64,000 bases of DNA from Candidatus Moranbacteria bacterium UBA2282 (GTDB lineage: Bacteria > Patescibacteriota > Minisyncoccia > Moranbacterales > UBA2206): assembly GCA_002345745.1 (NCBI GenBank), contig DDWQ01000014.1, forward strand, positions 4,439-68,438. Reading direction: 5' to 3'. Made by a program: the position numbers and the translations under genes. Below are positions 8,574-42,345 of the stretch, one piece after another. Below the pieces are notes generated by a model. The model was not told where the DNA came from and ran no database searches. It saw only the letters and a program-made list of their open reading frames with translations. The first letter of the stretch is position 1. Each line of letters starts with the position of its first letter.

Positions 8574-8647
8574 TCCGCGATAGCTCAATGGTAGAGCAGT
8601 TGACTGTTAATCAATTGGTTCCAGGTTCGAATCCTGGTCGCGGAGCC
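8574..8647 (+). tRNA. tRNA-Asn (anticodon GTT)
   Basis: Acceptor TCCGCGA/TCGCGGA. Anticodon loop CTGTTAA. T-arm CCAGGTTCGAATCCTGG. Ends GCC with no encoded CCA. Confidence 0.8.
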
Positions 8648-8795: not shown

Positions 8796-9848
8796 ATGGA
8801 AAATAGATTTGCAAAAAGGGCTATTTTAAGCCAGGAAATACTTCAAAAAATAACTAAAATTGATGAATTTAAAGGTTTATGGAAGGGTAGTTTGAGGTTG
8901 AGTCCACAGACATTGGGCAGGCTCAAACGCAGTGTGCTCATCACTAGTACAGGAGCTTCTACGCGCATTGAAGGCTCAAGGATGTCTGACAAAGAAGTGG
9001 CTAGACTTATCGCTGGTTTGAAATCAACACCACCCAAAGGTAGAGATGCACAAGAGGTGGCTGGTTACGCTGATCTTTTAGGAAGAATTTTTGATAATTG
9101 GAAAACTCTTAAAATTACTGAGGGTCAGATTTTACATTTCCATCAGATCCTGCTTAATTTTTCCGAAAAAGACAAAACTCACAAAGGCAACTACAAAACA
9201 TCTGATAATATGGTAGTTATGAGAAAAGTTGATGGCACGGAGGTTGTAATTTTTGAGCCGACCAAGCCATATCTTACTAAAAAAGAAATGGATGATGTTT
9301 TACACTGGCTAAGTGGCGAAATGAAAAAAGGGGAAACGCACCCACTCATTTTGATTGCTAATTTCATTTTTGAATTTTTAGCAATCCATCCTTTTCGTGA
9401 TGGAAATGGCCGGCTTTCCAGAGCACTGACCACACTGTTGCTTCTTAAATTTGGTTATACTTATGTCCCGTATGTTTCATTGGATGAAATTATTGAAGAA
9501 AAGAAGATTGATTATTATTTGGCTCTGCGAAAAACTCAGTCCAAACATAAAACAAAAAAAGAGGACATTACGCCATGGCTAAATTTTCTTTTAGATGCAC
9601 TTATTGAACAAATTAAAAGAGCTAAAAGCATAATGGAAGAGGATCAACCGGAAAAGTTGCTTTCGGAAAAACAACTTCTAATTTATCAGTTATTTCAAGT
9701 CGACACGCTGAGCGTTTCAGAAATTAGTAGTCTTATTAAAGACTCAATTCCAATGGTGACATTAAAGCAGTCGCTGTCACGCTTGGTGGCTTTGAGATTG
9801 ATTGAACGAGTTGGCATGGGCAGGGGCAGTCGATATAAAAAATTATAG
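8796..9848 (+). CDS. Fic family protein (AMPylation-type Fic fold) with C-terminal winged-helix-like domain
   Basis: Fic motif HPFRDGNGRLSR; upstream inhibitory-type motif STRIEG ([ST]xxxE[GN]); 350 aa. Confidence 0.8.
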   Translation: MENRFAKRAILSQEILQKITKIDEFKGLWKGSLRLSPQTLGRLKRSVLITSTGASTRIEGSRMSDKEVARLIAGLKSTPPKGRDAQEVAGYADLLGRIFDNWKTLKITEGQILHFHQILLNFSEKDKTHKGNYKTSDNMVVMRKVDGTEVVIFEPTKPYLTKKEMDDVLHWLSGEMKKGETHPLILIANFIFEFLAIHPFRDGNGRLSRALTTLLLLKFGYTYVPYVSLDEIIEEKKIDYYLALRKTQSKHKTKKEDITPWLNFLLDALIEQIKRAKSIMEEDQPEKLLSEKQLLIYQLFQVDTLSVSEISSLIKDSIPMVTLKQSLSRLVALRLIERVGMGRGSRYKKL

Positions 9849-10056: not shown

Positions 10057-11187
10057 ATGTCACAAGAAGATTTTAAGGCAGGAATTTACAAGCAACAATA
10101 TCAGTATAAGAGTTTTTCCCCTTCTGCCATAACTTCATATAAATGGTCTGATCCAAAAATCGATGTTTTGCTAGAAGATGCGGTAAGATATTTGGGTGAA
10201 CTGAATGCATATTCTCTACTTGTTCCTGATGTTGATTTTTTTATCAGAATGCATATTTTTAAGGAAGCAACAACTTCAAGTCGAATCGAGGGAACCAAAA
10301 CTGGTATGGAGGAAGCGTTGCTTCCAAAAGAAGAAGTTAATCCAGAAAGAAGAGATGATTGGGCTGAGGTTCAAAATTATACTCGGGCTATGAATTATGC
10401 TATCAGTGAACTTAAAAAATTACCACTCTCAATTAGATTACTAAGAGATACTCATAAAATTTTAATGACTGGTGTTCGTGGAAAATATAAAACTCCTGGA
10501 GAAATAAGAACGAGTCAAAACTGGATTGGCGGTTCATCTTTGCAAGATGCTGTTTTTATACCACCACATCCAAGTGAAGTTCCCGAGTTGCTAAGTGATC
10601 TTGAAAAATTTTGGCACAATAAGCAAGTGGCTATGCCTCATCTTATTAAAATTGCCATTAGCCATTATCAATTTGAAACAATCCATCCATTTTTGGATGG
10701 AAATGGCCGTATAGGAAGACTTTTAATTACACTGTACCTTGTAAATGAAGGTATCTTGCGGAAACCTACATTGTACTTGTCAGATTTTTTTGAAAGAAAC
10801 AAAGGGTCGTATTATGATGCATTGACTATGGTGAGAAAGTCTGATGACCTAGAACAGTGGATAAGTTTTTTTCTTATTGGTATTTCTGAAACAGCAAAAA
10901 AGGGGAAAGTTACTTTTGAGAAAATCATTGCTTTAAGACAAAAGTCAGAACAAAAGACCATTAGTTTTGGCAAACGAGCAAAAGTATCACAAGAATTATT
11001 GAAACATTTATACTCACAGCCAGTTATGAATATCAAACAAATAATGGAAAAGTTGGATATAACTAGTCCATCAGCTAATACTCTTGTTAAACAATTTCAG
11101 CAAGCAGGTATTCTTAAAGAGCTTACAGGATTTAAAAGAAATAGACTTTTTGTATTTGATGAATATCTTAAATTATTCAATAGGTAA
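10057..11187 (+). CDS. Fic family protein (paralog of 8796-9848)
   Basis: Fic motif [12 protein letters not shown]; inhibitory-type motif SSRIEG; 376 aa. A nested GC-rich hairpin (GCCACGA...TCGTGGC) follows at ~11232-11297. Confidence 0.8.
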
Positions 11188-14154: not shown

Positions 14155-14856
14155 ATGAAAAAAATACAAATAAAACTAAATACTAGACTTAAAAAGGCGA
14201 AATTGAAAAAAAGTGCTTATATTAGGTATTTTATGCAAAGATTTAATATTATCACTGAAGATATCAAAAAAAGCATTGAACCAGGGCTACTTAATAAACA
14301 TCAAGTAACGGTTGTAATGCTGGTTAGTTTTATTGTATTTACAAGTTACATTATTTTAATTAAACAATATTATTATCAAAATTTTTTGCAAGTGCGTCAG
14401 GTTGAGCAAAAAAGTGTGCAGGAATTTAAAGCAGAAAAGTTTGAAAAAGAGCTAGCAACTCTAGTTGCGGGTTATCCAATTGAAGCTATGGTTCCATATA
14501 TTGCTAAAAAAGATAGAGACACCGCTGCATATCTAATTGGAATCGCTAAAAAAGAAAGTAATTGGGGCAAAAGAAAACCCGTGCTAGATGGAAAGGATTG
14601 TTATAATTATTGGGGTTTTAGAGCTACACGCGAACGGATGGGCAGTGGCGGACACACGTGTTTTGATAATCCGAAAGAAGCAGTCAATGCTATTGCAAAT
14701 AGAATTGATCAAATTATTGTGAGAAATGATGTGAAATCAGCAAAAAATATGGTTGTTTGGAAGTGCGGTTCAAATTGTGATGTGACTGGCGGACAAGATG
14801 CAGCTGACAAATGGATAATCGATGTGGATATGTATGCAAAAAAAGTCTTGAATTAG
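14155..14856 (+). CDS. membrane-anchored GH73/FlgJ-like (ESxWG...YNYWG) putative peptidoglycan glucosaminidase, paralog 1
   Basis: N-terminal TM. IAKKESNWG and YNYWGFRA resemble the FlgJ/AcmA catalytic Glu motif and the YNLFG motif. Four conserved Cys (DC, CFD, KCGSNC). Paralogs at 39461 and 41635. Confidence 0.5.
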   Translation: MKKIQIKLNTRLKKAKLKKSAYIRYFMQRFNIITEDIKKSIEPGLLNKHQVTVVMLVSFIVFTSYIILIKQYYYQNFLQVRQVEQKSVQEFKAEKFEKELATLVAGYPIEAMVPYIAKKDRDTAAYLIGIAKKESNWGKRKPVLDGKDCYNYWGFRATRERMGSGGHTCFDNPKEAVNAIANRIDQIIVRNDVKSAKNMVVWKCGSNCDVTGGQDAADKWIIDVDMYAKKVLN

Positions 14857-14952: not shown

Positions 14953-15966
14953 TTAATTTATTTGTTCTGTTTGAAGCATTAATCTTTTCCAATCAGTATT
15001 AAGTGGCCAACAAGTTACGATGGTAAGATTTTGTTTGGAAGTTTCTTCAAAGATGCGCTGATCATCTGGGCTAACGACTTCTTTGTTAGTGACTTTATAT
15101 TTATACTCCAGTGTTTTACCATTAGCTTGTGTTGCAGTTATTACAATTTCATCACCAGCTTGCAGATTATTTAAATCTTTGAAAATGTAATTATATTCTC
15201 CATCAGACCAAATGTAATTGCTACTATGTCCCGTAGTCACTACATTACCAGCTTGCCCAGGGATTCCTGTTTGTGGATAGCGTACCACGCCTTTTTTCAG
15301 GTCTTCCTGTAAATCAGCTTCAAGGGTGCTAACAGACCAGAGGACAGGTGCGTCAACATTAATCTTGGTAATAATAACTTTGTAGCTTGGTCTAGCATCG
15401 CCTTTTTTGCTGGGATCATAACCATTTCTGATTTCATTAGAATCGTCAAATCCATCCTCATCAGTATCAGCTTTCTGTGGATTGGTGCCATGGCGTAGCT
15501 CAAGATAATTAGGTAAACCATCATTATCCTGATCCAGAGCATAGTCGTTGGCAGTGACGCTCAAGCCAAATTCTTCCTCCCAAATATCGGGCAAGGTATC
15601 TTTATCCAAATCAAGCCTGCCTGCTCCAATGGGATTGTAACCAGCTTTGATCTCCGCACCATCTGAATAACCATCCTTATCTGTGTCAGCTTCTTGGGGA
15701 TTAGTGGCATACTTATATTCAGCTAGTATGGTCAAACCATCATTATCTAGATCTTGTTGTAAATCTTTTTCATTTTCAACTTGAATGTCATATTTTTCTA
15801 GCCAAACATTAGGGATGCCATATTTTTCCTGGGAAGGCAGATTAACTGAACCATTAATAAATCTTCCAATATTACTAATATCAAAGTTAAGGAGATAAAA
15901 AATGATTGCAAAAATAATAAGAAAGGCTGAGATAATAGATGGACGTTTTAGTAGTTTAATTTGCAT
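14953..15966 (-). CDS. sortase family transpeptidase with thrombospondin type-3-like Ca-binding repeats
   Basis: N-terminal TM. Four DxDxDG repeats (DNDGLT, DTDKDGYSDG, DQDNDGLP, DTDEDGFDD). Sortase His (VTTGHSS) and catalytic Cys in LTIVTCWP. Confidence 0.7.
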   Translation of the reverse strand: MQIKLLKRPSIISAFLIIFAIIFYLLNFDISNIGRFINGSVNLPSQEKYGIPNVWLEKYDIQVENEKDLQQDLDNDGLTILAEYKYATNPQEADTDKDGYSDGAEIKAGYNPIGAGRLDLDKDTLPDIWEEEFGLSVTANDYALDQDNDGLPNYLELRHGTNPQKADTDEDGFDDSNEIRNGYDPSKKGDARPSYKVIITKINVDAPVLWSVSTLEADLQEDLKKGVVRYPQTGIPGQAGNVVTTGHSSNYIWSDGEYNYIFKDLNNLQAGDEIVITATQANGKTLEYKYKVTNKEVVSPDDQRIFEETSKQNLTIVTCWPLNTDWKRLMLQTEQIN

Positions 15967-16052: not shown

Positions 16053-17672
16053 TTATTTTTGGTAAGCCAACTTTTTTGTTTTTATCCAAATATAGATCAG
16101 CAAAGCTGTAATGGATAATAGGGCGGCTAGATAGATAGCAATGCTGCCACTACCGGTGGCGGGTGCCACTCGTTTACCTTTGTAACCGAAGTCAGCTTTC
16201 ATATAAGAATCGTGATCATTTTTCAATGTGACATCGGTTTTATTATTTTTTGTGTCATCTGGATCATAAGTTTGGGTATATTTATCAACGTCTTCATTTG
16301 TAACATTAATAATGTAATCATTTTTACATAGACGTTTAAAAGAATAATATCCCTTATGATCAGTGGTAGTACGATAAGTATTACCGTCAGAAGTTATTTT
16401 TACACGTATCCCGCTAAGACCTTTTTCGCTATCGTCTTGCACTCCATCACCATTAGCATCTAGCCAGACGTAATCGCCAATTTCTCCCTTACATTCGTCA
16501 TCTTCTGGCTTTGGTCCTGGTCCTGGTGGAGGTGGAAGTGGAGGTGTGTTTTCTAATCTAACCGATGAATTATCACTGTCGGTTAGATTGGCAGTATTAT
16601 TTACTGGTGAAGCGGTTACTTGAGCAATATTTATATAGCTTGCTGTTACAGATGAATCTGTGCAAGTATAATTGAAAGATTCTTTTGGGTCGAAATAATC
16701 TCCAGCGTATAAATTTTTTGTTTGACTAGCACTTCTATTACAGTTAGAAACTCTAGGGTCAGAAATAACTACATTTTTTAAAATTGCATTACCTGTATTT
16801 GTAACAGTTATTTTGAAAGTTGCTGAACCACCATTTGTAACTGTTTGAGTGTCATCACCATTGTCATTGTCGTTCTTGATAATAGTAATAGCAGGATGCA
16901 ATACATTTACTTGCACTCTTGTACTACATGTTACGCTGCCACCGACTCCTTTTGCGGTAGCTGTGTAGAGAGTTGTTTGTGTGGGGCGGACTATTCTTGT
17001 TCCACTCACATTCACACTTCCAACACCTTGATTGATAGAAAAACTAGTTGCGTTAGTGGATGACCAAGTTAAAGTTGATTGACTCCCAGCATTAATGGTA
17101 GCTGGATTAGCATTGATAGCACAAGTAGGAGCTGGAATTACAGGATTTATTTTATCTAAAACAATAGAATTTATAATAATACTTTCCATAGCATCTCCGG
17201 AACCAACCTTATTATAACTCTCAGTATACCATTTTCCAGTGAAGATATTGGCATATTTGTGACGAGCTTTAAAAGTGACGTTACCTGATAAATTGATTAT
17301 TCCTAAATCATAAACAGCTGTTTTTGTAGAAGTAGCATTGCCACCTAAATCAGGAACAGTATAATCCTTGCCGTTGACAGTTACAATCGCCACTTCATAT
17401 TTTTGAGAAGCAGTCAAGCTACCGACATTTACTTTGACTCGATAATTTCCCGAAGCCACGTTGACTGTCTGCGTGCCGGTTGCCCCGTTACAACTATTCA
17501 TTGGTCCACAGTAAGTGGCCAAATTATAAGGCACAACATCCTCCTTGCAAAAGCAATTAGGAGCAAACATTTTCGCACTTGACCCGAAGGTTACGGTGGT
17601 TGCAGCTTGTGCTTGAGGAGCAGCAATAAGAGCGCTGACAAGTAGCAAGGCAATTAAAAGTAATTTTTTCAT
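16053..17672 (-). CDS. secreted surface protein (DUF11 repeat, SdrD-B/Cna-B-like domain) with C-terminal sorting-signal-like tail
   Basis: Signal peptide MKKLLLIALLLVSALIAAPQAQA. DUF11-like TVTNTGNAILKNVVISD. Pro-rich linker PPLPPPPGPGPKP. SdrD-B motif GDYVWLDANGDGVQD...GYYSF. C-terminus VAPATGSGS, then hydrophobic TM, then KTKKLAYQK. Confidence 0.7.
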   Translation of the reverse strand: MKKLLLIALLLVSALIAAPQAQAATTVTFGSSAKMFAPNCFCKEDVVPYNLATYCGPMNSCNGATGTQTVNVASGNYRVKVNVGSLTASQKYEVAIVTVNGKDYTVPDLGGNATSTKTAVYDLGIINLSGNVTFKARHKYANIFTGKWYTESYNKVGSGDAMESIIINSIVLDKINPVIPAPTCAINANPATINAGSQSTLTWSSTNATSFSINQGVGSVNVSGTRIVRPTQTTLYTATAKGVGGSVTCSTRVQVNVLHPAITIIKNDNDNGDDTQTVTNGGSATFKITVTNTGNAILKNVVISDPRVSNCNRSASQTKNLYAGDYFDPKESFNYTCTDSSVTASYINIAQVTASPVNNTANLTDSDNSSVRLENTPPLPPPPGPGPKPEDDECKGEIGDYVWLDANGDGVQDDSEKGLSGIRVKITSDGNTYRTTTDHKGYYSFKRLCKNDYIINVTNEDVDKYTQTYDPDDTKNNKTDVTLKNDHDSYMKADFGYKGKRVAPATGSGSIAIYLAALLSITALLIYIWIKTKKLAYQK

Positions 17673-20327: not shown

Positions 20328-21017
20328 ATGAAAAAAATTTGTAGCTGTCTGATTGGGGTAGCAATTTTTTTGTATTCGGTAATTTTTGCACAGGCTGAAT
20401 GCACAGGAGTTTGTTTGCAATATTGTGGCAATCCAGGCGGTAGTCATGGATATTGCGTGGATTATATTTATGACAGGCTAAAAGTTAGGCAATCTGGAAA
20501 TGCAGTAAATTGGATCGGAACGGATGGCTTGAGTATGGATGAGGTTCAAGTGAATGATGTGGCAATTTTTGGTGCAACTAGTTCAAATCCTTATGGTCAT
20601 GTTGCTGTAGTAGATAGTGTTGAAGGTGATAATATTACGATAAGTGAGTGGAATTTTGGATATCCTTCGAATAATTCAGTGGAGTTGTCTTGCGGGGTAA
20701 CAACACAATATCACAATACAACCACAAGAACTATCGCAAAAAGTAGCGTATCAAGATTCTGGCGGCCAGAAACTGTAGCTCCTTGCGAGTCTAATATCCA
20801 GATAACGCTTCAGATTGTTGGTAATGTTGGCTGGTATCCGAATTATCTATCATGTGTTTCGGCAAATGCTTGGTATAATATCATTGAAGAAAATGGCGAA
20901 AAACTTGCTACATCAGCAAATGAGGGTCCAACGATTTGTTGGAGTATTCAGTATTCTTTATATGGCGTTGATTATGATGTTATTTTTGGATCTCAACCAT
21001 TAACTTGTCATCAATAA
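20328..21017 (+). CDS. secreted CHAP-domain protein (putative peptidoglycan amidase or peptidase)
   Basis: Signal peptide. Cys in GYCVDYIY and His in YGHVAVVDSVEGDNITISEWNFG, typical CHAP arrangement. Confidence 0.6.
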   Translation: MKKICSCLIGVAIFLYSVIFAQAECTGVCLQYCGNPGGSHGYCVDYIYDRLKVRQSGNAVNWIGTDGLSMDEVQVNDVAIFGATSSNPYGHVAVVDSVEGDNITISEWNFGYPSNNSVELSCGVTTQYHNTTTRTIAKSSVSRFWRPETVAPCESNIQITLQIVGNVGWYPNYLSCVSANAWYNIIEENGEKLATSANEGPTICWSIQYSLYGVDYDVIFGSQPLTCHQ

Positions 21018-21030
21018 TAGGAGGTGCTTA

Positions 21031-22308
21031 ATGAAAAGTATCGCAATGTTGGTTTTTTCAATCTTACTTTTTGTTGTAAATATTTCGCATGCAGGGTGTG
21101 GCGATATATCTATAGTGACTGTTAACTCAAACTATGAAAATCCTGTTACCAGTCTTTCTCTCCCCAACCTCCAAATCAAAGAATTCAACATCCACGACAC
21201 ACCCGACACTAAACTGGTTGAGAGCCAATCAATTATGAATGTCGGACAAACATATGAAGTTCATGTCTGGCCAGTCTCCAAAGAGGCTGATTGTACCAAT
21301 GGCATCGAAGCTGGCAAAGACACAGTGGAAACTGATACTTTCTACAAAATCGCCACAAGCAAAGACGAAGGAGAATGGATTTTCCTCCATCGCAACTACA
21401 CCCAATGCGTGAATATGGATCAAGATGATTCCAAAAAAGAAATCTTCAATTTTACTGTCCCACCTGAAGCTTCTGGACAAAGAATATATTTCAAATCCAA
21501 AGTTGACTCAACAGGTGAAGTGCGAGAAACTAATGAACACGACAACTGGTCGGATGTTGAATGGTATCCGGTCGAAGGATATTGTTCGAGTTGTCCCGAC
21601 CTGGCTGTGCCCTATATCGGCCTTACTGCTGGAAAAACCAGTGTTGATCTTGGTGGCAAATTCGGCTTGGAAGTAGACGTAATGAATCAAGGAAACGCTA
21701 ATTGCCCAATCGATATTCGTGGTGCATACTATCTTAAAGTGCCCAATGCTACAAATTGGACACAAGTGGCTGATGACGGCAGTGAAGCAAGTGACCTTGA
21801 TGTTGGTGAATCTGAACGAGAATATACTATGGATTCTCCGTTCACCGCCAACCAAATCGGTGCTTGGCAAGGTATGTTCTGTGCTGACCATCTCAATGCT
21901 GTTAGAGAACAAGACGAAAGCAATAACTGCAAAATTTTTATATTTAACGTTAATCCGGTTGGACCGGATTTAATTATTTCCAGCCTTGGATTTAAAGAAG
22001 GCCTTTCCTTTAAGAGAAAGATCAGTTCTCACCCTTGGGCTATCGTGAAGAATATCGGTAACAAAACTCCAGCCTCCAATATTCGCATCGCTTATTATAT
22101 CGACGGACAGTATCGCGATGATGATGGGGTTTCCGCCGATGAACTCACTCCCGGTCGTGATCAATATGAAAGCGTCGACAACAACAATATTAGACTTGGT
22201 GACTGGGGCACAAGAACGCTCACTGTCTGTGTCGATACCAAGGGTCAAGTACCAGAGCTTAATGAAGGCAATAACTGTGCTTCAGTAAGGTTTACAGTTA
22301 TCAGATGA
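21031..22308 (+). CDS. secreted protein with CARDB-like domains
   Basis: Signal peptide. Repeated C-terminal-of-domain motifs NEHDNWSDV, ESNNCKIFIF and NEGNNCASVRFTV resemble CARDB E-x-NE-NN endings. Confidence 0.5.
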   Translation: MKSIAMLVFSILLFVVNISHAGCGDISIVTVNSNYENPVTSLSLPNLQIKEFNIHDTPDTKLVESQSIMNVGQTYEVHVWPVSKEADCTNGIEAGKDTVETDTFYKIATSKDEGEWIFLHRNYTQCVNMDQDDSKKEIFNFTVPPEASGQRIYFKSKVDSTGEVRETNEHDNWSDVEWYPVEGYCSSCPDLAVPYIGLTAGKTSVDLGGKFGLEVDVMNQGNANCPIDIRGAYYLKVPNATNWTQVADDGSEASDLDVGESEREYTMDSPFTANQIGAWQGMFCADHLNAVREQDESNNCKIFIFNVNPVGPDLIISSLGFKEGLSFKRKISSHPWAIVKNIGNKTPASNIRIAYYIDGQYRDDDGVSADELTPGRDQYESVDNNNIRLGDWGTRTLTVCVDTKGQVPELNEGNNCASVRFTVIR

Positions 22309-27254: not shown

Positions 27255-27977
27255 ATGAAAATCAAAACAACTTTGCCGATAACTGAAGCTAGAAAAAATA
27301 TTTTTAACATTGCAGAAGAGGTGCAAAAATCCGGAGTATATTATACATTAACTGAACATGGCCGTCCTAAAATGGTTATGCTTTCAGCTGAAAAATTTGA
27401 AACTCTGACAGAGCAAAAAAATAATAATTTTATTTGTGCTGATAAATCACAGCAAGCCTATGGTATGTCGCGGGAAATGATGTTATCAAAAGTTTTGGTG
27501 GTGCGGGATGAATCACGGGTGGTCTATTTATCAGGGGATGATCAGAATTTGAGATACAAAGAAGAAAGTCTCATAAAATCACAACTCTATATCAAACTAA
27601 TTGAAAAATACAAATATTCGCTAGGGCTGATTGAATTTGGCCGCTATGTCAAAGTGGGCGGTGAAAAAAGCCGTCACTATATCGAAGCTGACATCATCAT
27701 CAATGATGGTCATGGTAATGTCAGGATGATTTTTGAAGTTGGTTTATTTGATGAATATGAAAAAAGTCTTGATCAAATTATGGCAGACTTGTTTGATATC
27801 TCATCAGCTGTCGCTTGGGTCAAAAAGCCGGAATTTCTGGTCTACTATTCTCGCAGTTGTAAAACTGGGATTGTGAAAGAAAAAATTTTGGTAGTCGATT
27901 GCTCCAAATTCAACACTTTTTCCGCCTGGAAAAAAGCTGGGCGACCAGGAGACAAAACCATCCCAGAATTTTGTTAA
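27255..27977 (+). CDS. Phd/YefM-like N-terminal domain fused to a PD-(D/E)xK-like (HsdR-N-like) domain; function unknown
   Basis: N-terminus ITEARKNIFNIAEEVQKSGVYYTLTEHGRPKMVMLSAEKFETL resembles Phd/YefM antitoxins. C-terminal part has EADIIINDGHGNVRMIFEVG, a PD-(D/E)xK-like pattern. Confidence 0.45.
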   Translation: MKIKTTLPITEARKNIFNIAEEVQKSGVYYTLTEHGRPKMVMLSAEKFETLTEQKNNNFICADKSQQAYGMSREMMLSKVLVVRDESRVVYLSGDDQNLRYKEESLIKSQLYIKLIEKYKYSLGLIEFGRYVKVGGEKSRHYIEADIIINDGHGNVRMIFEVGLFDEYEKSLDQIMADLFDISSAVAWVKKPEFLVYYSRSCKTGIVKEKILVVDCSKFNTFSAWKKAGRPGDKTIPEFC

Positions 27978-34879: not shown

Positions 34880-35731
34880 ATGAGCAAAAACAAAAAAATC
34901 CTAATTGGAAGCCAGTTAATTTCAGTGAATTTGTCAGAACGCGAGAATGATTACATCTCTCTCACAGATATAGCGAAATTTAAGGATAAAGAACGGACGG
35001 ATTATATTATTCAGAATTGGATGAGAAATAGGGATACTATTGAATTTTTGGGTATTTGGGAAAAAATAAACAATGTTAATTTTAAACCCATCGAATTCGA
35101 TGGGTTAAGAAAAGGTGCCGGATTAAACAGTTTTTCTTTGACACCTAAAAGATGGATTGAGTCTGTTGGGGCAGTAGGAATTGTAAACAAGGCTGGTCGC
35201 TATGGTGGTGGCACATTCGCACATAAGGACATTGCTTTTGAATTTGCAATGTGGATTTCACCGGAATTTAGATTATATCTGATTAAAGAGTTCCAACGCC
35301 TAAAAGCTGATGAAAATGAAAAGCTGGCCTTAGGATGGGATGCTAGACGAATGCTGACTAAAATAAATTATAAAATTCATACGGATGCGATCAAAGAAAA
35401 TATTGTTATGCCAGCCAAGCTTTCACAAAAAGAGGCAAATTTAGCCTATGCCAATGAGGCGGATGTTTTGAATGTGGCTTTGTTTGGAATGACGGCCAAA
35501 GACTGGCAGGACAAAAATCCTAAATTGGTTGGAAACGTTCGCGATTATTCCGACGTGACCCAATTGGTTTGTTTAGCAAACTTAGAAAATCTCAATGCGG
35601 AATATATTAGAGTCGGACTATCGCAGAAAGAACGATTAATAAAATTAAATTTGAGCGCGATTTCACAAATGAAGTCGTTACTAGGTAATGCTAGTATTAA
35701 AAAGCTAGAAAATAAAAAACAGGCATTTTGA
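34880..35731 (+). CDS. KilA-N domain protein (DinD-like)
   Basis: ISLTDIAK...GTFAHKDIAFEFAMWISPEFRLYLIKEF, characteristic KilA-N/APSES-like core. Confidence 0.6.
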   Translation: MSKNKKILIGSQLISVNLSERENDYISLTDIAKFKDKERTDYIIQNWMRNRDTIEFLGIWEKINNVNFKPIEFDGLRKGAGLNSFSLTPKRWIESVGAVGIVNKAGRYGGGTFAHKDIAFEFAMWISPEFRLYLIKEFQRLKADENEKLALGWDARRMLTKINYKIHTDAIKENIVMPAKLSQKEANLAYANEADVLNVALFGMTAKDWQDKNPKLVGNVRDYSDVTQLVCLANLENLNAEYIRVGLSQKERLIKLNLSAISQMKSLLGNASIKKLENKKQAF

Positions 35732-37310: not shown

Positions 37311-38372
37311 ATGCAACTAAAAAACTACAATGTCTATTTCTTTTTCACCATCCTAATTGGTATAACAATATTGGCCTATTTCGTTATAAAACCATTTTTG
37401 GTGCCATTTTTGATCGCAGCTATTTTAGCGCATCTATTTGGATTTATCTATGAAATGTTTTTGAAGCTCACGCGAAAAAGCAAAGGCACAAGTGCTATAT
37501 TAACATGTTTGCTAATCGCTTTGATAATTCTAATCCCGATCATCTCAATATCATCTTTGGTTATAAATGAAATATTAAATATTTTAAATTATTTTTCACA
37601 AAGCAGTCTTTCTGTAGGAAATATTATTAGCAACGCTGTTAATAATTTATCAGTGTTACCATTTGTCAAAACAATTGGAATAGAAAAAATTGTTAATCAG
37701 GATATGATTATGGGTGCCGCCACAAGTTTTTCTCAAAATGCATTAACTATTTTGCAAGGGGCATATCAAGGAACGGCTAGTATGATTTTGGTAACTTTTA
37801 TGATGTTTTTTGCGCTCTTTTACTTATTAATTGATGGAAAAAAATTTCTCAAAAAAATAATGCAACTTAGTCCATTGCGAAATAGCTATGAAAATATTTT
37901 AATTGAAAAATTTAATTCTATTGCGCGTGCTACGATAAAAGGAACAATTTTGATCGCGATTATACAAGGGTTTATGGGTGGTGTTTTGTTTATGGCAACC
38001 GGTGTTTATTCGCCAATTTTACTGGGTCTTTTGATGACCATAGCTTCAGTTATTCCCGCTATTGGATCTGGGTTGGTGTGGTTGCCAGTAGGAATAATTA
38101 TGTTGCTCACAGGGAATATTACAGCTGGACTAACAATAATTCTAGTTGGAGCCTTGCTTATAAGCACCTTTGATAATTTTGTCAGACCAAAATTAGTTGG
38201 CAATGATACTGAGATGCATCCGTTGCTCATTCTTTTTTCTACGCTAGGGGGAATTACACTTTTTGGGTTAGCAGGATTTATTGTTGGGCCAATTATAATG
38301 TCCTTATTTGTAACTCTGTGGGATATTTATTATATGGAATTTAGAACTCAGCTGAAAGAATTTAATAAATAG
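37311..38372 (+). CDS. AI-2E family transporter (PerM-like)
   Basis: 8 predicted TM helices; AI-2E-like topology and length. Confidence 0.7.
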   Translation: MQLKNYNVYFFFTILIGITILAYFVIKPFLVPFLIAAILAHLFGFIYEMFLKLTRKSKGTSAILTCLLIALIILIPIISISSLVINEILNILNYFSQSSLSVGNIISNAVNNLSVLPFVKTIGIEKIVNQDMIMGAATSFSQNALTILQGAYQGTASMILVTFMMFFALFYLLIDGKKFLKKIMQLSPLRNSYENILIEKFNSIARATIKGTILIAIIQGFMGGVLFMATGVYSPILLGLLMTIASVIPAIGSGLVWLPVGIIMLLTGNITAGLTIILVGALLISTFDNFVRPKLVGNDTEMHPLLILFSTLGGITLFGLAGFIVGPIIMSLFVTLWDIYYMEFRTQLKEFNK

Positions 38373-38531: not shown

Positions 38532-39398
38532 ATGAAAAGTCTTTTAGAATATTATCAAAATATTCCCTTACATATAGATCCAGTGGCGTTCACAATTAGT
38601 TCTTTTCCTGTTGGTTGGTATGCTGTAATGTATATGCTTGCATTTTTGATTGCATACTTACTATTAATGTATCGCACAAAAAAGAAGGAAGGCATATATG
38701 ATAAAGATTTGATTATTGATTTTATGATTTTGGCTCTGGTAGCTGCACTCCTTGGTGGACGCTTGGGGTATGTTCTTTTGTATAATCCTGTATATTATTT
38801 CCATAATTTGTGGAGCATAATTTCGCCGTATGATTTCGTGACCGGTGAGTTTATCGGAATCTATGGGATGAGCTATCATGGTGGATTACTGGCTATTATT
38901 GTGGCTGGATTTATTTTTCTGAGAAAGAAACTCATTAATAACAAGCCCATAAATTTCTGGCGATTTGCTGATTTTGTTGTGCCAGTAATTCCCGCGGGTT
39001 ATTTTTTTGGACGAATTGGTAATTTTCTTAATCTTGAATTGTATGGCAGAATAACTAATAGCTGGATAGGTATGTATTTTCCAATTTTCACTGGTGCCGG
39101 ACAATTTTTACGTTTCCCATCACAATTGCTTGAAGCATTGCTTGAGGGAGCCGTGCTTTTTATAATTCTTTGGAGTATCAGGAATAGAAGTAAGTTTAGT
39201 GGTCAACTCCTAGCAGTATATCTAGTTGGTTATGGTTTTTTCAGAATGATGGCAGAATTTTTTAGAGAGCCAGATGAACAGATTGGCTTGTTACTGCAAT
39301 ATTTCACCTTGGGACAAATTTTTAGTTTACTAATGATTTGCGTTGGAATAAGTGTCTATTTTTGGCGGAAAAATAAAATAATAGATTATCTTTCGTAG
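38532..39398 (+). CDS. lgt: prolipoprotein diacylglyceryl transferase
   Basis: YGMSYHGGLLAIIV; FGRIGNFLNLELYGR Lgt signature. Confidence 0.8.
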   Translation: MKSLLEYYQNIPLHIDPVAFTISSFPVGWYAVMYMLAFLIAYLLLMYRTKKKEGIYDKDLIIDFMILALVAALLGGRLGYVLLYNPVYYFHNLWSIISPYDFVTGEFIGIYGMSYHGGLLAIIVAGFIFLRKKLINNKPINFWRFADFVVPVIPAGYFFGRIGNFLNLELYGRITNSWIGMYFPIFTGAGQFLRFPSQLLEALLEGAVLFIILWSIRNRSKFSGQLLAVYLVGYGFFRMMAEFFREPDEQIGLLLQYFTLGQIFSLLMICVGISVYFWRKNKIIDYLS

Positions 39399-39460: not shown

Positions 39461-40537
39461 TTGATGGATGCAATAAAAAAAAATAAGTTAGATGGATTGT
39501 GCAAAAAGGACAAGAAAATATTTTTTTTTGATCTTCCATTGGCTCGTTTTGTAGGTAAATATAAAAATTCTTCAGTTTTTCTTTCTAAAAAAGGTAAGAT
39601 TGATTTTTTTTATACTGAAGATTCAAAATTATATGTGACGCCGACCGAATATCGCCGGTTAGAAAAAGGTGAAAAAATTGTGCGTGTCTCAAATAGAATG
39701 GACAGCGCTCTTTCTAGAGATTTTGGAAAGACTAAAATATATTCAATTGGTCAGCGAGACATTGTTTATTACAATATTAAAAAGAGATATTCTAATCTTG
39801 GAAACTACTTTAATGATTTAGTTCATGGTGCAGTGCAGGGTGTTTCTATGGCTAGGATGTGGAATTTGTCGATTGTTGGGGCAGTTATTTTTGGAATGTT
39901 AACGATGACGATGATTTATAAATATTTAGGACAAAATGTTTCAGCGGCACTCAATGATGCTGTCTATGCTGAACAATTACAACAAATTGAGTCAATTATA
40001 ATTCCGAGTGGAAGCAATGTTGTTGACGCTAAAGAGGCACAATCTGAAACAACTGACAGTATTGATACTTCTTTTGTAACTAAAATATTAGCACAGGCAG
40101 AGGAAAAAGAGGATAGTGAATTCGAACAGGAATTACGTGAAATGGTAAAAGGTTATCCAATTGAATTGATGATTCCTGAAATAGCCAAGCAAGATAGAAT
40201 TGTCGCAGCCTTCATTGTCGCTATCGCTAAAAAAGAAAGTGCGTGGGGGAACCGTATTCCAGTGTTAGATGGTCAAGATTGTTTTAATTATTGGGGTTAT
40301 CGTGGTATTCGCGACCGAATGGGCACAGGTGGACATACTTGTTTTGATAGTCCAGCAGATGCTGTAGCTACGGTGGGGAAACGCATTGCAACTTTAGTAG
40401 ACGAATATGGTCGAAACACGCCTGCGGAGATGGTTGTTTGGAAATGCGGTTCTGATTGTGAAGTTACGGGTGGGCAAGCAGCTGCTAATAAATGGATTTC
40501 TGATGTGGCGTTGTATTTTGATCAATTGAATAAGTAA
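39461..40537 (+). CDS. membrane-anchored GH73/FlgJ-like putative peptidoglycan glucosaminidase, paralog 2 (longer cytoplasmic N-terminus)
   Basis: IAKKESAWG; FNYWGYRG; CFDSP; VVWKCGSDCEVTGGQAAANKWISDV; one TM. Confidence 0.5.
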   Translation: MMDAIKKNKLDGLCKKDKKIFFFDLPLARFVGKYKNSSVFLSKKGKIDFFYTEDSKLYVTPTEYRRLEKGEKIVRVSNRMDSALSRDFGKTKIYSIGQRDIVYYNIKKRYSNLGNYFNDLVHGAVQGVSMARMWNLSIVGAVIFGMLTMTMIYKYLGQNVSAALNDAVYAEQLQQIESIIIPSGSNVVDAKEAQSETTDSIDTSFVTKILAQAEEKEDSEFEQELREMVKGYPIELMIPEIAKQDRIVAAFIVAIAKKESAWGNRIPVLDGQDCFNYWGYRGIRDRMGTGGHTCFDSPADAVATVGKRIATLVDEYGRNTPAEMVVWKCGSDCEVTGGQAAANKWISDVALYFDQLNK

Positions 40538-40588
40538 AAAACAGATTTAGAATAAACAATCCAAAAAGCTTAGCTTTAAGCTCATTTC

Positions 40589-40622
40589 CCAACAGCAATA
40601 TTCATGCTGTTGGTTTTTTTAA
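40589..40622 (+). terminator. intrinsic terminator
   Basis: CCAACAGCA-atattca-TGCTGTTGG then TTTTTTT. Confidence 0.65.
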
Positions 40623-41050
40623 AATAATTTTTTCTGGATTTTATGTATATTTAGTGATAGAATAGAAACCTCTATGGAGGCCTCTAGGTGAGGGGAGAGG
40701 TTGCCAAGCGAAAATTTTAAGCTGGAATATTCCAAAAATTGACAATTTGATTTTTATTTGAATCTATGATAATTTGGATTTAGCTAAAAGTTAAATTAAG
40801 TTAATAAATAAAAAAACACCTATTATCGCAATTGCGTTAGTTGTTTCGCTTGCTATCCGAGTTGGTTTTTAGATTTCGAAGCAATGATGAATTCAATAAA
40901 GTTCATAGATTAGTTTAAATAGAGTACAGTTTTTTAACAATTCAACATAGAGGAGGTAAATTGAGTCAAAAATAATTACAATGAAAAATTATTAATTTTT
41001 CAACATAATATTTCCATTATTCTAAAAAACAGTGAATGAAAGGAGCAAAG

Positions 41051-41194
41051 AATGAAAAAGAAAATTGGATTGATATTTGTTATTTTTTTGGTTTTAATAA
41101 TGGTAACTCTTGTGATTGTTGAAGAAGTAATTGTTGTGCCTGAAACTCCGAATGGAATTCCTGCACCAACAAATTTTGAGATTATTGTCTTATA
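41051..41194 (+). CDS. 47-aa small hydrophobic protein (not in the ORF track, below its length cutoff)
   Basis: AAAGGAG RBS 7 nt upstream; MKKKIGLIFVIFLVLIMVTLVIV...; followed by terminator-like hairpin at 41243-41277. Confidence 0.3.
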
Positions 41195-41242
41195 ATCTAT
41201 TTGGAAAAAATATGAATAGATTTTTTAACCCTGAAAACCCTA

Positions 41243-41277
41243 TGGCATCGTGTTGTATTGCGATGTCATTTTTTTTC
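41243..41277 (+). terminator. intrinsic terminator-like hairpin plus T-run
   Basis: TGGCATCG-tgttgtatt-GCGATGTCA then TTTTTTTT. Confidence 0.5.
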
Positions 41278-41389
41278 AAATGTCTTCAAAACACTTAGTT
41301 AAAAATAAAAACTATTCATCAAAGATTTTGGTCATGGAAAGTTGGAAATCATTTATTGGCGACGGGTATAAAAAATAAATTAAATCGCA

Positions 41390-41450
41390 CATAATCTCAC
41401 GACCGTGAGATTATGTTAAAAATCCGGAAATAGCCGGATTTTTATTTTTT
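41390..41450 (+). terminator. tandem hairpins: 11-12 bp stem (CATAATCTCACG/CGTGAGATTATG), then ATCCGG-aaatag-CCGGAT plus T-run
   Basis: Read directly. The second hairpin has a canonical T-tail; the first has none. Confidence 0.5.
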
Positions 41451-41512
41451 ACCGATAAGACGGCAGCTAAGCCAAAAAACGACACTTTGCTTTATTTAAG
41501 CCATTTCATCGA

Positions 41513-41541
41513 TTGACAGGGTTACAGCACTTTGCTATGAT
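41513..41541 (+). promoter_or_regulatory. consensus sigma-70 promoter TTGACA-17-TATGAT, followed by 7-bp GC hairpin (41583-41602) in the leader
   Basis: TTGACA 41513-18; TATGAT 41536-41; CCTGCCT-gccggt-AGGCAGG hairpin. Confidence 0.5.
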
Positions 41542-41634
41542 AGATAGCGTCGTTCAAAAATCGAACACCAAAAACCAAAGGGCCTGCCTGCCGGTAGGCA
41601 GGGATTGTAATTCTAAATTGGCGACATAACTATT

Positions 41635-42345
41635 ATGGTTGATCCACTGCCCAGTCTCAAAAAATTGAGAGACATCTATGAGGGGATAGATACGGTTAAA
41701 AAGAATCATATTAAATTATCATTTACTATTCTCACGCTAAGTATAGGGTTATTTTTTTACTTTGCATCTGATAATCAAGCTTTGGCTCACAGAAAAGATG
41801 AACCTTTACATATTACACCAGAAGCCATTGACCCATTGCATAGGATTGGAAAGGGTATCAAAATTTTTGATTGCACAGTTAGTAGTTCTTGTTTAAAAAC
41901 AGAAACGCTTGTACAAGCAGAAGTTGTTACGGCTGATAATTCAATAATTGCCGAAACAGTAGCTGGCTCTCCAATGGCAGAAATGGTGCCAGCATTGGAA
42001 CAGAGGAGCAAAGAGGTTTCTTCCTATCTTGTGGCCATTGCTAAAAAAGAAAGTGATTGGGGAGTTCATTCGCCAAAAAAAGCAGGTCGTGATTGTTATA
42101 ATTATTGGGGTTATCGCGGAAAAGAAAATACAACAGATTCTGGATATAGTTGTTTTGATTCTCCAAACCATGCAATTGAAGTGGTTGGTGATAGGATTGA
42201 GAAACTTTTAGACCAAAATATCAATACACCGGCAAAAATGGTAGTTTGGAAATGTGGATCAAATTGCGAGGCGACTGGTGGGCAGGCAGCGGCTAATAAA
42301 TGGATTTCTGACGTGAAGTTATATCATGATAGGCTAAGTTCATAG
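41635..42345 (+). CDS. membrane-anchored GH73/FlgJ-like putative peptidoglycan glucosaminidase, paralog 3
   Basis: IAKKESDWG; YNYWGYRG; CFDSP; VVWKCGSNCEATGGQAAANKWISDV. Confidence 0.5.
   Translation: MVDPLPSLKKLRDIYEGIDTVKKNHIKLSFTILTLSIGLFFYFASDNQALAHRKDEPLHITPEAIDPLHRIGKGIKIFDCTVSSSCLKTETLVQAEVVTADNSIIAETVAGSPMAEMVPALEQRSKEVSSYLVAIAKKESDWGVHSPKKAGRDCYNYWGYRGKENTTDSGYSCFDSPNHAIEVVGDRIEKLLDQNINTPAKMVVWKCGSNCEATGGQAAANKWISDVKLYHDRLSS

Follow-up and report, generated by a model that had tools for sequence, protein, structure and literature searches.

Three hypothetical membrane proteins of a Moranbacteria genome share a four-cysteine, GH73-like domain and may be tethered peptidoglycan glycosidases

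Introduction

Three genes in a 64,000-nucleotide (nt) stretch of the genome of Candidatus Moranbacteria bacterium UBA2282 (contig DDWQ01000014.1, positions 4,439 to 68,438 of the forward strand; this whole stretch is called the window, and its own numbering is used throughout) encode proteins that public collections all label 'hypothetical protein' and that end in the same domain of about 138 amino acids (aa). What kind of domain is this, and on whose cell wall, if any, would it act? The candidate phyla radiation (CPR)/Patescibacteria make up a large share of bacterial diversity, their wall building and division have hardly been studied, 'hypothetical' is the label of most of their envelope proteins, and an episymbiotic life has been ascribed to many of them. 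An original prediction, made from the DNA letters, had described the three genes as paralogs carrying membrane-anchored domains with four cysteines, similar to enzymes of glycoside hydrolase family 73 (GH73) such as FlgJ, and had suggested that they might act on the wall of a host. Our preferred reading, to which we give a probability of about 60%, is that they are membrane-tethered, strongly diverged GH73-type (lysozyme-fold) peptidoglycan glycosidases that would remodel the cell's own wall.

Results

A shared domain and its family

All three open reading frames (ORFs) were found at the predicted positions, on the plus strand: ORF1 (14155..14856, 233 aa), ORF2 (39464..40537, 357 aa) and ORF3 (41635..42345, 236 aa), the start of ORF2 being the ATG at 39464 of the public gene call (the open frame from 39461 encodes 358 aa). 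The domain spans aa 96-233 of ORF1 (nt 14440-14853, preceded by a linker), aa 220-357 of ORF2 (nt 40121-40534) and aa 103-236 of ORF3 (nt 41941-42342), and this common C-terminal part of ~138 aa is 45-59% identical and aligns without large gaps. The motif blocks quoted at the outset were all recovered in the alignment, as IAKKESxWG, DC[YF]NYWG[FY]R, G[HY][TS]CFD[NS]P and MVVWKCGSxC[DE]xTGGQxAAxKWIxDV. A tblastn search of the window with copy 1 returned copy 2 (59% identity, E 3.5e-56), copy 3 (45%, E 2.5e-42) and no others, and a family hidden Markov model (HMM) run over all six frames found exactly three copies, so the window conceals neither a fourth copy nor a pseudogene.

When 1.84 billion representatives were searched exhaustively with an HMMER profile, only 300 proteins came up at E<=1e-3, 236 of them at E<=1e-30; so few matches, most of them this strong, indicate that the family is compact and sharply bounded, with a size of about 300 clusters at 50% identity. 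A word-indexed search returned 2,309 clusters (90% identity) at E<=1e-3, none with a precomputed Pfam domain; their names are 'hypothetical', from Candidatus Moranbacteria or Parcubacteria, apart from one 'uncharacterized FlgJ-related protein' (JGI). When one genome per GTDB species was searched, 553 matches were confirmed, and the best 80 of these come nearly all from metagenome-assembled genomes (MAGs) of Moraniibacteriota/Parcubacteria/Patescibacteria. The suspected lineage specificity is thus upheld, the family being confined to Moranbacteria/Parcubacteria MAGs. No description of it was found in the literature, and Pfam and NCBIfam give it no name. Homologs were absent from 50,697 phage genomes (best E 0.3) and from IMG/VR, and a phage origin or endolysin role was dropped on these grounds. 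Concordance of the tail motif (TGGQAA versus GHSxxSV) among paralogs within genomes, considered as a sign of gene conversion or substrate co-adaptation, was mixed and gave no clear pattern.

Active site, profile comparisons and fold

Conservation was read from 150 unselected representatives with pairwise identity <50%, and residue numbers are those of ORF1 unless another ORF is named. GH73 enzymes have a lysozyme-like fold with an invariant general-acid Glu on the central helix (PMC4752226), and E134 (nt 14554-14556), E258 of ORF2 (nt 40235-40237) and E139 of ORF3 (nt 42049-42051) align to the Glu of ESGWG in FlgJ and Bax. The identification of the ESxWG Glu as the catalytic residue is strengthened by its conservation: within this motif the Glu (E134), the Ser (S135) and the Gly (G138) are invariant (W137 at least 90% conserved), and the same holds within YNxxG for N151 and G154, with at least 90% conservation at Y152 and W153. 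P142, C169, A176, W202, K203, C204, G205, C208 and W220 are invariant as well. In FlgJ, Auto and TM0633 a beta-hairpin bears a second essential Glu (PMC4752226); the corresponding region here is about 20 residues shorter than that of FlgJ, as it also is in Bax, leaving a lobe of about 15 residues. D148, which adjoins the first cysteine, is acidic in 90% of the family (85% Asp, 5% Glu). The downstream blocks WKCG..C and TGGQAAxKWIxDV are family-specific and, as the original prediction had noted, atypical of GH73.

Profile-profile comparison with hhalign used the family alignment (253 sequences) as query and, as templates, alignments built on FlgJ and Bax as annotated in the genome of E. coli K-12, for which 120 PF01832-positive relatives were collected. 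The family matched the Bax alignment with a probability of 89.5% (P 2e-6, score 41.4, 89 columns), a comparison limited by a shallow template (Neff 2.5), an identity of about 20% and low confidence in the C-terminal third, and it matched the FlgJ alignment with a probability of 68% (P 4.7e-5, score 34.2, 35 columns). Controls with reversed or column-shuffled templates stayed at a probability <=0.7% (P 0.08-0.7, score 9-16, <=23 columns). A greedier hhalign run gave a collinear mapping over about 108 columns that was the same for both templates and paired IAKKESxWG with AALESGWG, CYNYWG with SYNLFG, G[HY]xCF[DS]PxxAV with GYSQFSSVKESV (Bax) or FRVYSSYLEAL (FlgJ), WKCG[SY]xC with KGYST or AGYATD, and KWIxDV with the last helix of the templates; G[HY]xCF[DS]P is thereby collinear with GYSQFSS. 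The proposed pairing of motifs, including the equivalence of YNYWG and YNLFG, was therefore recovered by HMM-HMM comparison, with negative shuffled controls. In single-sequence searches ORF1 and ORF2 matched NCBIfam FlgJ models below threshold (E 0.003 and 0.028), ORF3 was the only window copy with a direct match to the Pfam Glucosaminidase family (PF01832), and 60 of the 150 diverse relatives matched PF01832 at E<=1 (best E 4.4e-5), the next family being matched by 5 of the 150.

An AlphaFold2 (AF2) model of the ORF1 domain, computed from an alignment of 22 domain sequences, consists of helices and a small beta region spanning residues 42-75 (mean predicted local distance difference test, pLDDT, 87.8; predicted template-modelling score, pTM, 0.82). 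Searched with Foldseek against BFVD, a viral library, it had as its top three matches phage GH73 'mannosyl-glycoprotein endo-beta-N-acetylglucosaminidases' (prob 0.92, 0.87 and 0.63; query-normalised score, TMq, 0.62, 0.61 and 0.48), and among its weak matches in the PDB those with the best TM-score were lysozyme-fold enzymes (endolysin 9ms7, TMq 0.51; SLT; g-type lysozyme). Full-length ORF2 was modelled independently, and its top six PDB matches are GH73 FlgJ structures, including 3vwo (prob 1.00, target-normalised score, TMt, 0.51), 5dn5 (0.98), 2zyc and 3k3t (both 0.97) and 5dn4 (0.80), with other lysozyme-fold enzymes below them. The Foldseek link to GH73 thus comes from the viral library, for the ORF1 domain, and from the ORF2 model only; in both cases GH73 structures are the nearest neighbours, as expected if the predicted lysozyme-like fold is correct.

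The four cysteines

The four cysteines singled out in the original prediction as foreign to GH73 (C149, C169, C204 and C208, with codons starting at 14599, 14659, 14764 and 14776 in ORF1 and at 40280, 40340, 40445 and 40457 in ORF2) are present in all three copies and are spaced C-x19-C-x34-C-x3-C in 120 of the 120 closest relatives in the database. Across the 150 representatives three are invariant and the fourth, C149, is conserved in at least 90%. The first two flank the shortened hairpin, and the Cys3-x3-Cys4 pair flanks the loop equivalent to YATD. GH73 structures show a distance of 15-20 A across the cleft, from the catalytic-Glu side to the YATD side (PMC7170848), which makes two local pairs likelier than one four-Cys cluster. 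The most likely arrangement would be one pair, Cys1-Cys2, across the base of the short beta lobe and a second, Cys3-x3-Cys4, within the loop that replaces YATD, and the four residues would stabilise the reduced domain. A His stands two residues ahead of Cys2 in 82% of members. Proteins of ORF1 and ORF2 type have it; in the ORF3 type it is a Tyr (ORF3 block SGYSCFD), as in Bax (GYSQF), which argues against a metal ligand at this position.

Membrane topology

Hydropathy profiles of the 3 window proteins and 135 representatives were used to count transmembrane (TM) segments. Each window protein has one hydrophobic segment ahead of the domain, and 103 of the 135 representatives have exactly one. 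In ORF1 a basic tail predicted to be cytoplasmic (aa 1-50, with 14 Lys/Arg against 3 Asp/Glu) precedes the TM helix (aa 51-69, nt 14305-14361), a charge distribution that fits an orientation with the N-terminus inside and the C-terminus outside. In ORF3 the segment (aa 26-44, nt 41710-41766) may be an anchor or a long signal peptide: it is followed by ...SDNQALA/HRK (the slash marks the candidate cleavage point), and on this sequence it could be cleaved instead of serving as a permanent anchor. The outward-facing domain of the original prediction is consistent with the profiles, and its single N-terminal TM helix stands as one segment per protein, with the reservation that in ORF3 this segment is possibly a cleavable signal peptide.

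ORF2 is the long type. A conserved alpha/beta domain predicted to be cytoplasmic (aa ~24-121) comes before a highly conserved TM helix (aa 129-157, hydrophobic segment aa 133-151), a disordered linker (aa 159-201) and the GH73-like domain, and the AF2 model likewise shows a helix at 129-155, a disordered linker and then the domain. The fold of the cytoplasmic part resembles nothing known: it has no match in Pfam, in PDB sequences or by Foldseek, and the confidence of its model is moderate (pLDDT 56-78). In the ORF2 type mean column conservation is almost as high in the TM helix (0.72) as in the catalytic domain (0.75), against 0.39 in the cytoplasmic domain and 0.25 in the linker. Within the TM region (39848-39946, ORF2 aa 129-161) S136, G144, M148, Y152, G156 and A161 are invariant in 58 sequences (identity 33-67%), and the conserved positions S136, A140, G144, M148, Y152 and G156 recur with a period of about 4 and fall on one face, a small-xxx-small pattern as expected of a helix-helix interface. 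Directly after the helix a conserved ...GQ(G/N)VSA resembles a signal-peptidase AXA site, with the cut after VSA.

Discussion

How far, then, can the domain be called GH73/FlgJ-like? Four independent lines (HMM searches, profile-profile comparison, Foldseek and an outward orientation that fits the hydropathy profiles) agree with this part of the original prediction; formal membership of GH73 falls short of the Pfam cut-off and fails in two further motif comparisons, and several of our results weigh against the preferred reading. ORF3 reaches only E 0.0099 and 17 bits against PF01832, below the gathering score of 30.2 bits, ORF1 and ORF2 have no match to it at E<=10, and the HMMER search of 1.84 billion representatives never reaches GH73 proper. 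Profile searches of PDB sequences with alignments of 3, 22 and 58 sequences returned noise, namely Rcf1 (E 0.018) and, at E about 0.04, influenza HA2 and gp41. In the PDB the ORF1-domain model had neither a significant Foldseek match nor a GH73 entry among its weak ones, and the Foldseek E-values are weak (0.02-0.5). The shortened hairpin has no conserved acid, the best candidate, E160, being Glu/Asp in 56%. At the Tyr position of YATD, where several GH73 enzymes need an aromatic residue (PMC7170848), all three window copies have Ser (S206 in ORF1), and the family as a whole has Ser in 52%, Tyr in 28% and Phe in 3%, or about 31% aromatic. Roughly a third of the ORF2-type loci lack linkage to lgt, the prolipoprotein diacylglyceryl transferase gene that precedes paralog 2. 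Some GH73 members are without the hairpin carboxylate (PMC4752226), and since this residue is not universal its absence weakens membership of the family without excluding it. The invariant W202, four residues upstream of S206, might substitute for the YATD aromatic.

As judged from sequence, the domain layout is probably closest to the Bax branch of PF01832 (COG2992, 'uncharacterized FlgJ-related protein'). In the alignments Bax shares ESGWG, NLFG, the short beta-hairpin, a G-Y-S-x-F-[SD]-S block to which SGYSCFDS of ORF3 is identical, and G-[YS]-S-[TC] at the YATD position. It differs in lacking the four invariant cysteines (it has a C-x4-C of its own in the hairpin), in having a periplasmic signal peptide where the window proteins are TM-anchored, and in the Tyr of GYST, which is Ser in the window copies; WKCG..C and TGGQAAxKWIxDV are likewise peculiar to our family. 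Among solved structures the ORF2 model comes closest to the GH73 domains of FlgJ (Sphingomonas 2ZYC/3VWO, Salmonella 5DN4/5DN5), with about 17-18% identity over 135-159 columns and the ES(G)WG...YN(L)FG region aligned. FlgJ has a long mobile beta-hairpin with the second essential Glu (PMC4752226), whereas the hairpin of the family is shorter, and the family lacks the flagellar rod-binding domain and any flagellar context.

If the three proteins are tethered glycosidases, they would be bitopic, with a cytoplasmic N-terminus and the C-terminal 138-aa domain outside, and the invariant Glu would serve as general acid. The short hairpin without a conserved carboxylate suggests that the second step would be substrate-assisted, through the 2-acetamido group, or would follow a single-carboxylate route, a proposal already made for certain GH73 enzymes. 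Held by the TM helix and a linker of about 45-70 residues, the domain would act on peptidoglycan of the cell itself, nascent or close to the membrane, in growth, in septum splitting or in freeing strands from the lipid anchor as SagB of S. aureus does. Membrane-tethered autolysins in a SagB-like arrangement would be the most likely form of the system. The TM helix of SagB is needed for its complex with the polytopic SpdC, and this complex cleaves nascent strands from the lipid anchor (bioRxiv 10.1101/2020.05.21.109470). In SagB, too, an extracellular domain of GH73 type comes after an N-terminal TM helix, and the TM helix conserved on one face in the ORF2 type hints at some partner; unlike the ORF2 type, SagB has no cytoplasmic domain of ~100 residues, and it shows no detectable close sequence relationship to the window family. 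With its conserved TM face and cytoplasmic domain, the ORF2 type would probably work in, or be controlled through, a complex within the membrane. A CAAX/Abi (SpdC-like) gene was not seen among the window genes scanned or next to the window copies, and a physical link of ORF2 to the syntenic AI-2E-family polytopic protein is pure speculation. A bolder version, which we regard as improbable, would make the family a Moranbacteria-specific 'release factor' for nascent peptidoglycan, its core switched by a four-Cys redox or metal centre and, in the ORF2 type, wall cleavage outside the cell gated by the state of the cytoplasm, with the small-xxx-small TM face and the cytoplasmic domain coupling the core to a membrane partner such as the AI-2E-family protein or a polymerase; a regulatory architecture of this kind has not been described for GH73 enzymes.

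Two alternatives accept the fold and dispute the chemistry. The domain could be a lytic transglycosylase-like or single-carboxylate terminase of glycan strands, filling the niche of MltG, instead of an N-acetylglucosaminidase; it would then leave 1,6-anhydro-N-acetylmuramic acid (1,6-anhydro-MurNAc) ends or cleave the bond between MurNAc and N-acetylglucosamine (GlcNAc). MltG (YceG) has a single-pass anchor that holds a glycan-cleaving domain near the site of polymerisation, and one TM helix with an outward domain is also what the window proteins present. The likeness is a functional analogy only, fold and family being unrelated and no sequence or structure match to MltG having appeared in our searches. 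The single invariant carboxylate, the shortened hairpin without a conserved acid and the structural neighbours found below the GH73 entries (SLT and GH23, single-Glu enzymes) would all suit such an activity, but the closest matches in both sequence and structure are GH73 and not GH23/SLT, and D148 near Cys1 could be a second carboxylate; we consider it unlikely. Slightly more doubtful is that the modules are catalytically dead and bind peptidoglycan or regulate wall enzymes, perhaps with one paralog still active. The window copies do lack the YATD aromatic and the hairpin carboxylate, and a scaffold or regulator might well come in several paralogs and have, like ORF2, conserved TM and cytoplasmic parts; against this, the Glu and its ESxWG context are invariant in ~150 representatives and in three paralog types, which is unusual for pseudoenzymes, and the groove-lining N151, G154, W202, K203 and W220 are invariant too.

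A role directed at a host wall, raised in the original prediction and here taken to be that of an epibiont's weapon or attachment aid, finds some encouragement in the episymbiotic lifestyle ascribed to many CPR bacteria, in the possible cleavage (ALA/H) and release of ORF3 and in the sortase and surface adhesin-like protein that adjoin ORF1. Our results do not support it: in both ORF1 and ORF2 a TM helix with a short linker (about 26-70 residues) tethers the domain, the neighbouring genes are housekeeping ones (RsmI, methionyl-tRNA synthetase (MetRS), TatD, ATP synthase) with conserved synteny with lgt, the sortase neighbourhood recurs in 1 of 10 ORF1-type loci, phage homologs are lacking, and neither an immunity-like partner gene nor a secretion-system context was seen around the window genes. 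We hold it to be highly doubtful. Least credible of all is that the four cysteines, with the His or Tyr before Cys2, form a zinc or redox centre, making the protein a metal- or redox-gated enzyme or no glycosidase. The cysteines are essentially invariant, the His is frequent, and anaerobes are common among CPR bacteria, so that one would expect disulfides outside the cytoplasm less readily; yet the His gives way to Tyr in the ORF3 type as in Bax, the x19, x34 and x3 spacing matches no known zinc-knuckle pattern, and the distance between the two sides of the GH73 cleft disfavours a single cluster.

Read as own-wall glycosidases, the three proteins would constitute a new, lineage-specific variant of GH73-like enzymes, an extension of a known kind and not a new principle. 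The reading offers a testable function for an unnamed family with two to four copies per Moranbacteria genome, and the stripped-down core, if active, bears on the unresolved GH73 mechanism. The unusually conserved ORF2-type TM helix also offers a concrete starting point for finding a possible membrane complex, comparable to SagB-SpdC, that would control wall cleavage.

Genomic context

The window is a stretch of ordinary chromosome, with pyruvate kinase, DnaG, RpoD, BipA, MetRS, leucyl-tRNA synthetase (LeuRS) and ATP synthase among its products. Paralog 2 follows a gene for an AI-2E family (PF01594) polytopic membrane protein (37311..38372, plus strand) and lgt (38532..39398, plus strand), which ends 65 nt upstream of it; the 65-nt gap has no terminator-like site, and a terminator-like hairpin (40589-40613; with its T-run 40589..40623, plus strand) lies 50 nt past paralog 2. 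Across 80 related loci lgt is upstream of the family gene in 34 and AI-2E plus lgt in 28; in 48 the cytoplasmic domain of the ORF2 type can be recognised. The ORF2-type paralog is probably co-transcribed with lgt. Tandem paralogs are present in 45 of the 80 loci. A shorter paralog comes directly after the long one in about 40 loci, and three copies are found in five; in 13 loci, as in the window, the paralog array is followed by a rhodanese gene. Many family-carrying records are titled 'uncultured Bdellovibrionales bacterium' MAGs (L016, L023, L030, L032, L043, L047, L049, L051 and L057, with further loci of Bdellovibrionales title at L061, L064, L069, L071-L075 and L081). Several of them have the AI-2E - lgt - ORF2 synteny of Moranbacteria MAGs (e.g., L016, L032, L049, L057, L064 and L072), and these taxonomic labels are probably wrong.

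Between paralogs 2 and 3 lies a gene-poor, AT-rich gap of 1.1 kb (40538-41634), its GC content being 30.6% and that of the window 35.9%. Those closest relatives that have three tandem copies (L015, L018, L027 and L028) carry at this place a third, 'middle' paralog of ~240 aa (IAKHESNLG / SGYSCFD). A fourth copy or pseudogene was sought in the gap and left no remnant at protein or HMM level, and the 'middle' paralog was probably lost or replaced in the window. The gap contains a small ORF (41052-41195, plus strand, 47 aa, MKKKIGLIFVIFLVLIMVTLVIVEEV...) with a strong AAAGGAG ribosome-binding site ~6 nt upstream and a terminator-like hairpin downstream (41242-41269), which may encode a small membrane or secreted peptide. 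The region's best promoter, a sigma-70-like TTGACA-N17-TATGAT (41513..41541, plus strand, 11 of 12 matches, with a TG ahead of the -10), is about 95 nt upstream of paralog 3, and the stretch 41485-41700 has 70-80% DNA identity to the DNA upstream of orthologs (e.g., 78.5% over 233 nt in L038). The leader of paralog 3 contains a GC-rich palindromic hairpin, CCTGCCT-gccggt-AGGCAGG (41583-41602), that could be a regulatory element; the leader had no Rfam match at the gathering threshold.

Orthologs of ORF1 (64-77% domain identity) occur in about 10 loci. Convergent with paralog 1 is a pair made up of a sortase with bacterial TSP3 calcium-binding repeats (14953-15966, minus strand) and the adjoining SdrD_B/DUF11/DUF7507 surface protein (16053-17672, minus strand). 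The pair is missing from the orthologous loci of other genomes and is therefore probably a lineage-specific insertion. These neighbours were considered as a functional link to ORF1 and dropped, since only 1 of 10 ORF1-type loci has them. A CHAP-domain protein (20328-21017, plus strand, Pfam E 8e-12), 5.5 kb from paralog 1, is likely to be a second peptidoglycan hydrolase (amidase or endopeptidase), and a CARDB-domain protein (21031-22308) comes directly after it.

Elsewhere in the window, two adjoining Fic-domain proteins are encoded on the plus strand (8796-9848 and 10057-11187, the second with Fic_N and a C-terminal winged helix) just after tRNA-Asn (8574-8647) and may form a small mobile or toxin-like island. 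A Phd/YefM antitoxin-domain protein (27255-27977, plus strand) and a KilA-N domain protein (34880-35731, plus strand), situated amid housekeeping genes, hint at phage or toxin-antitoxin remnants.

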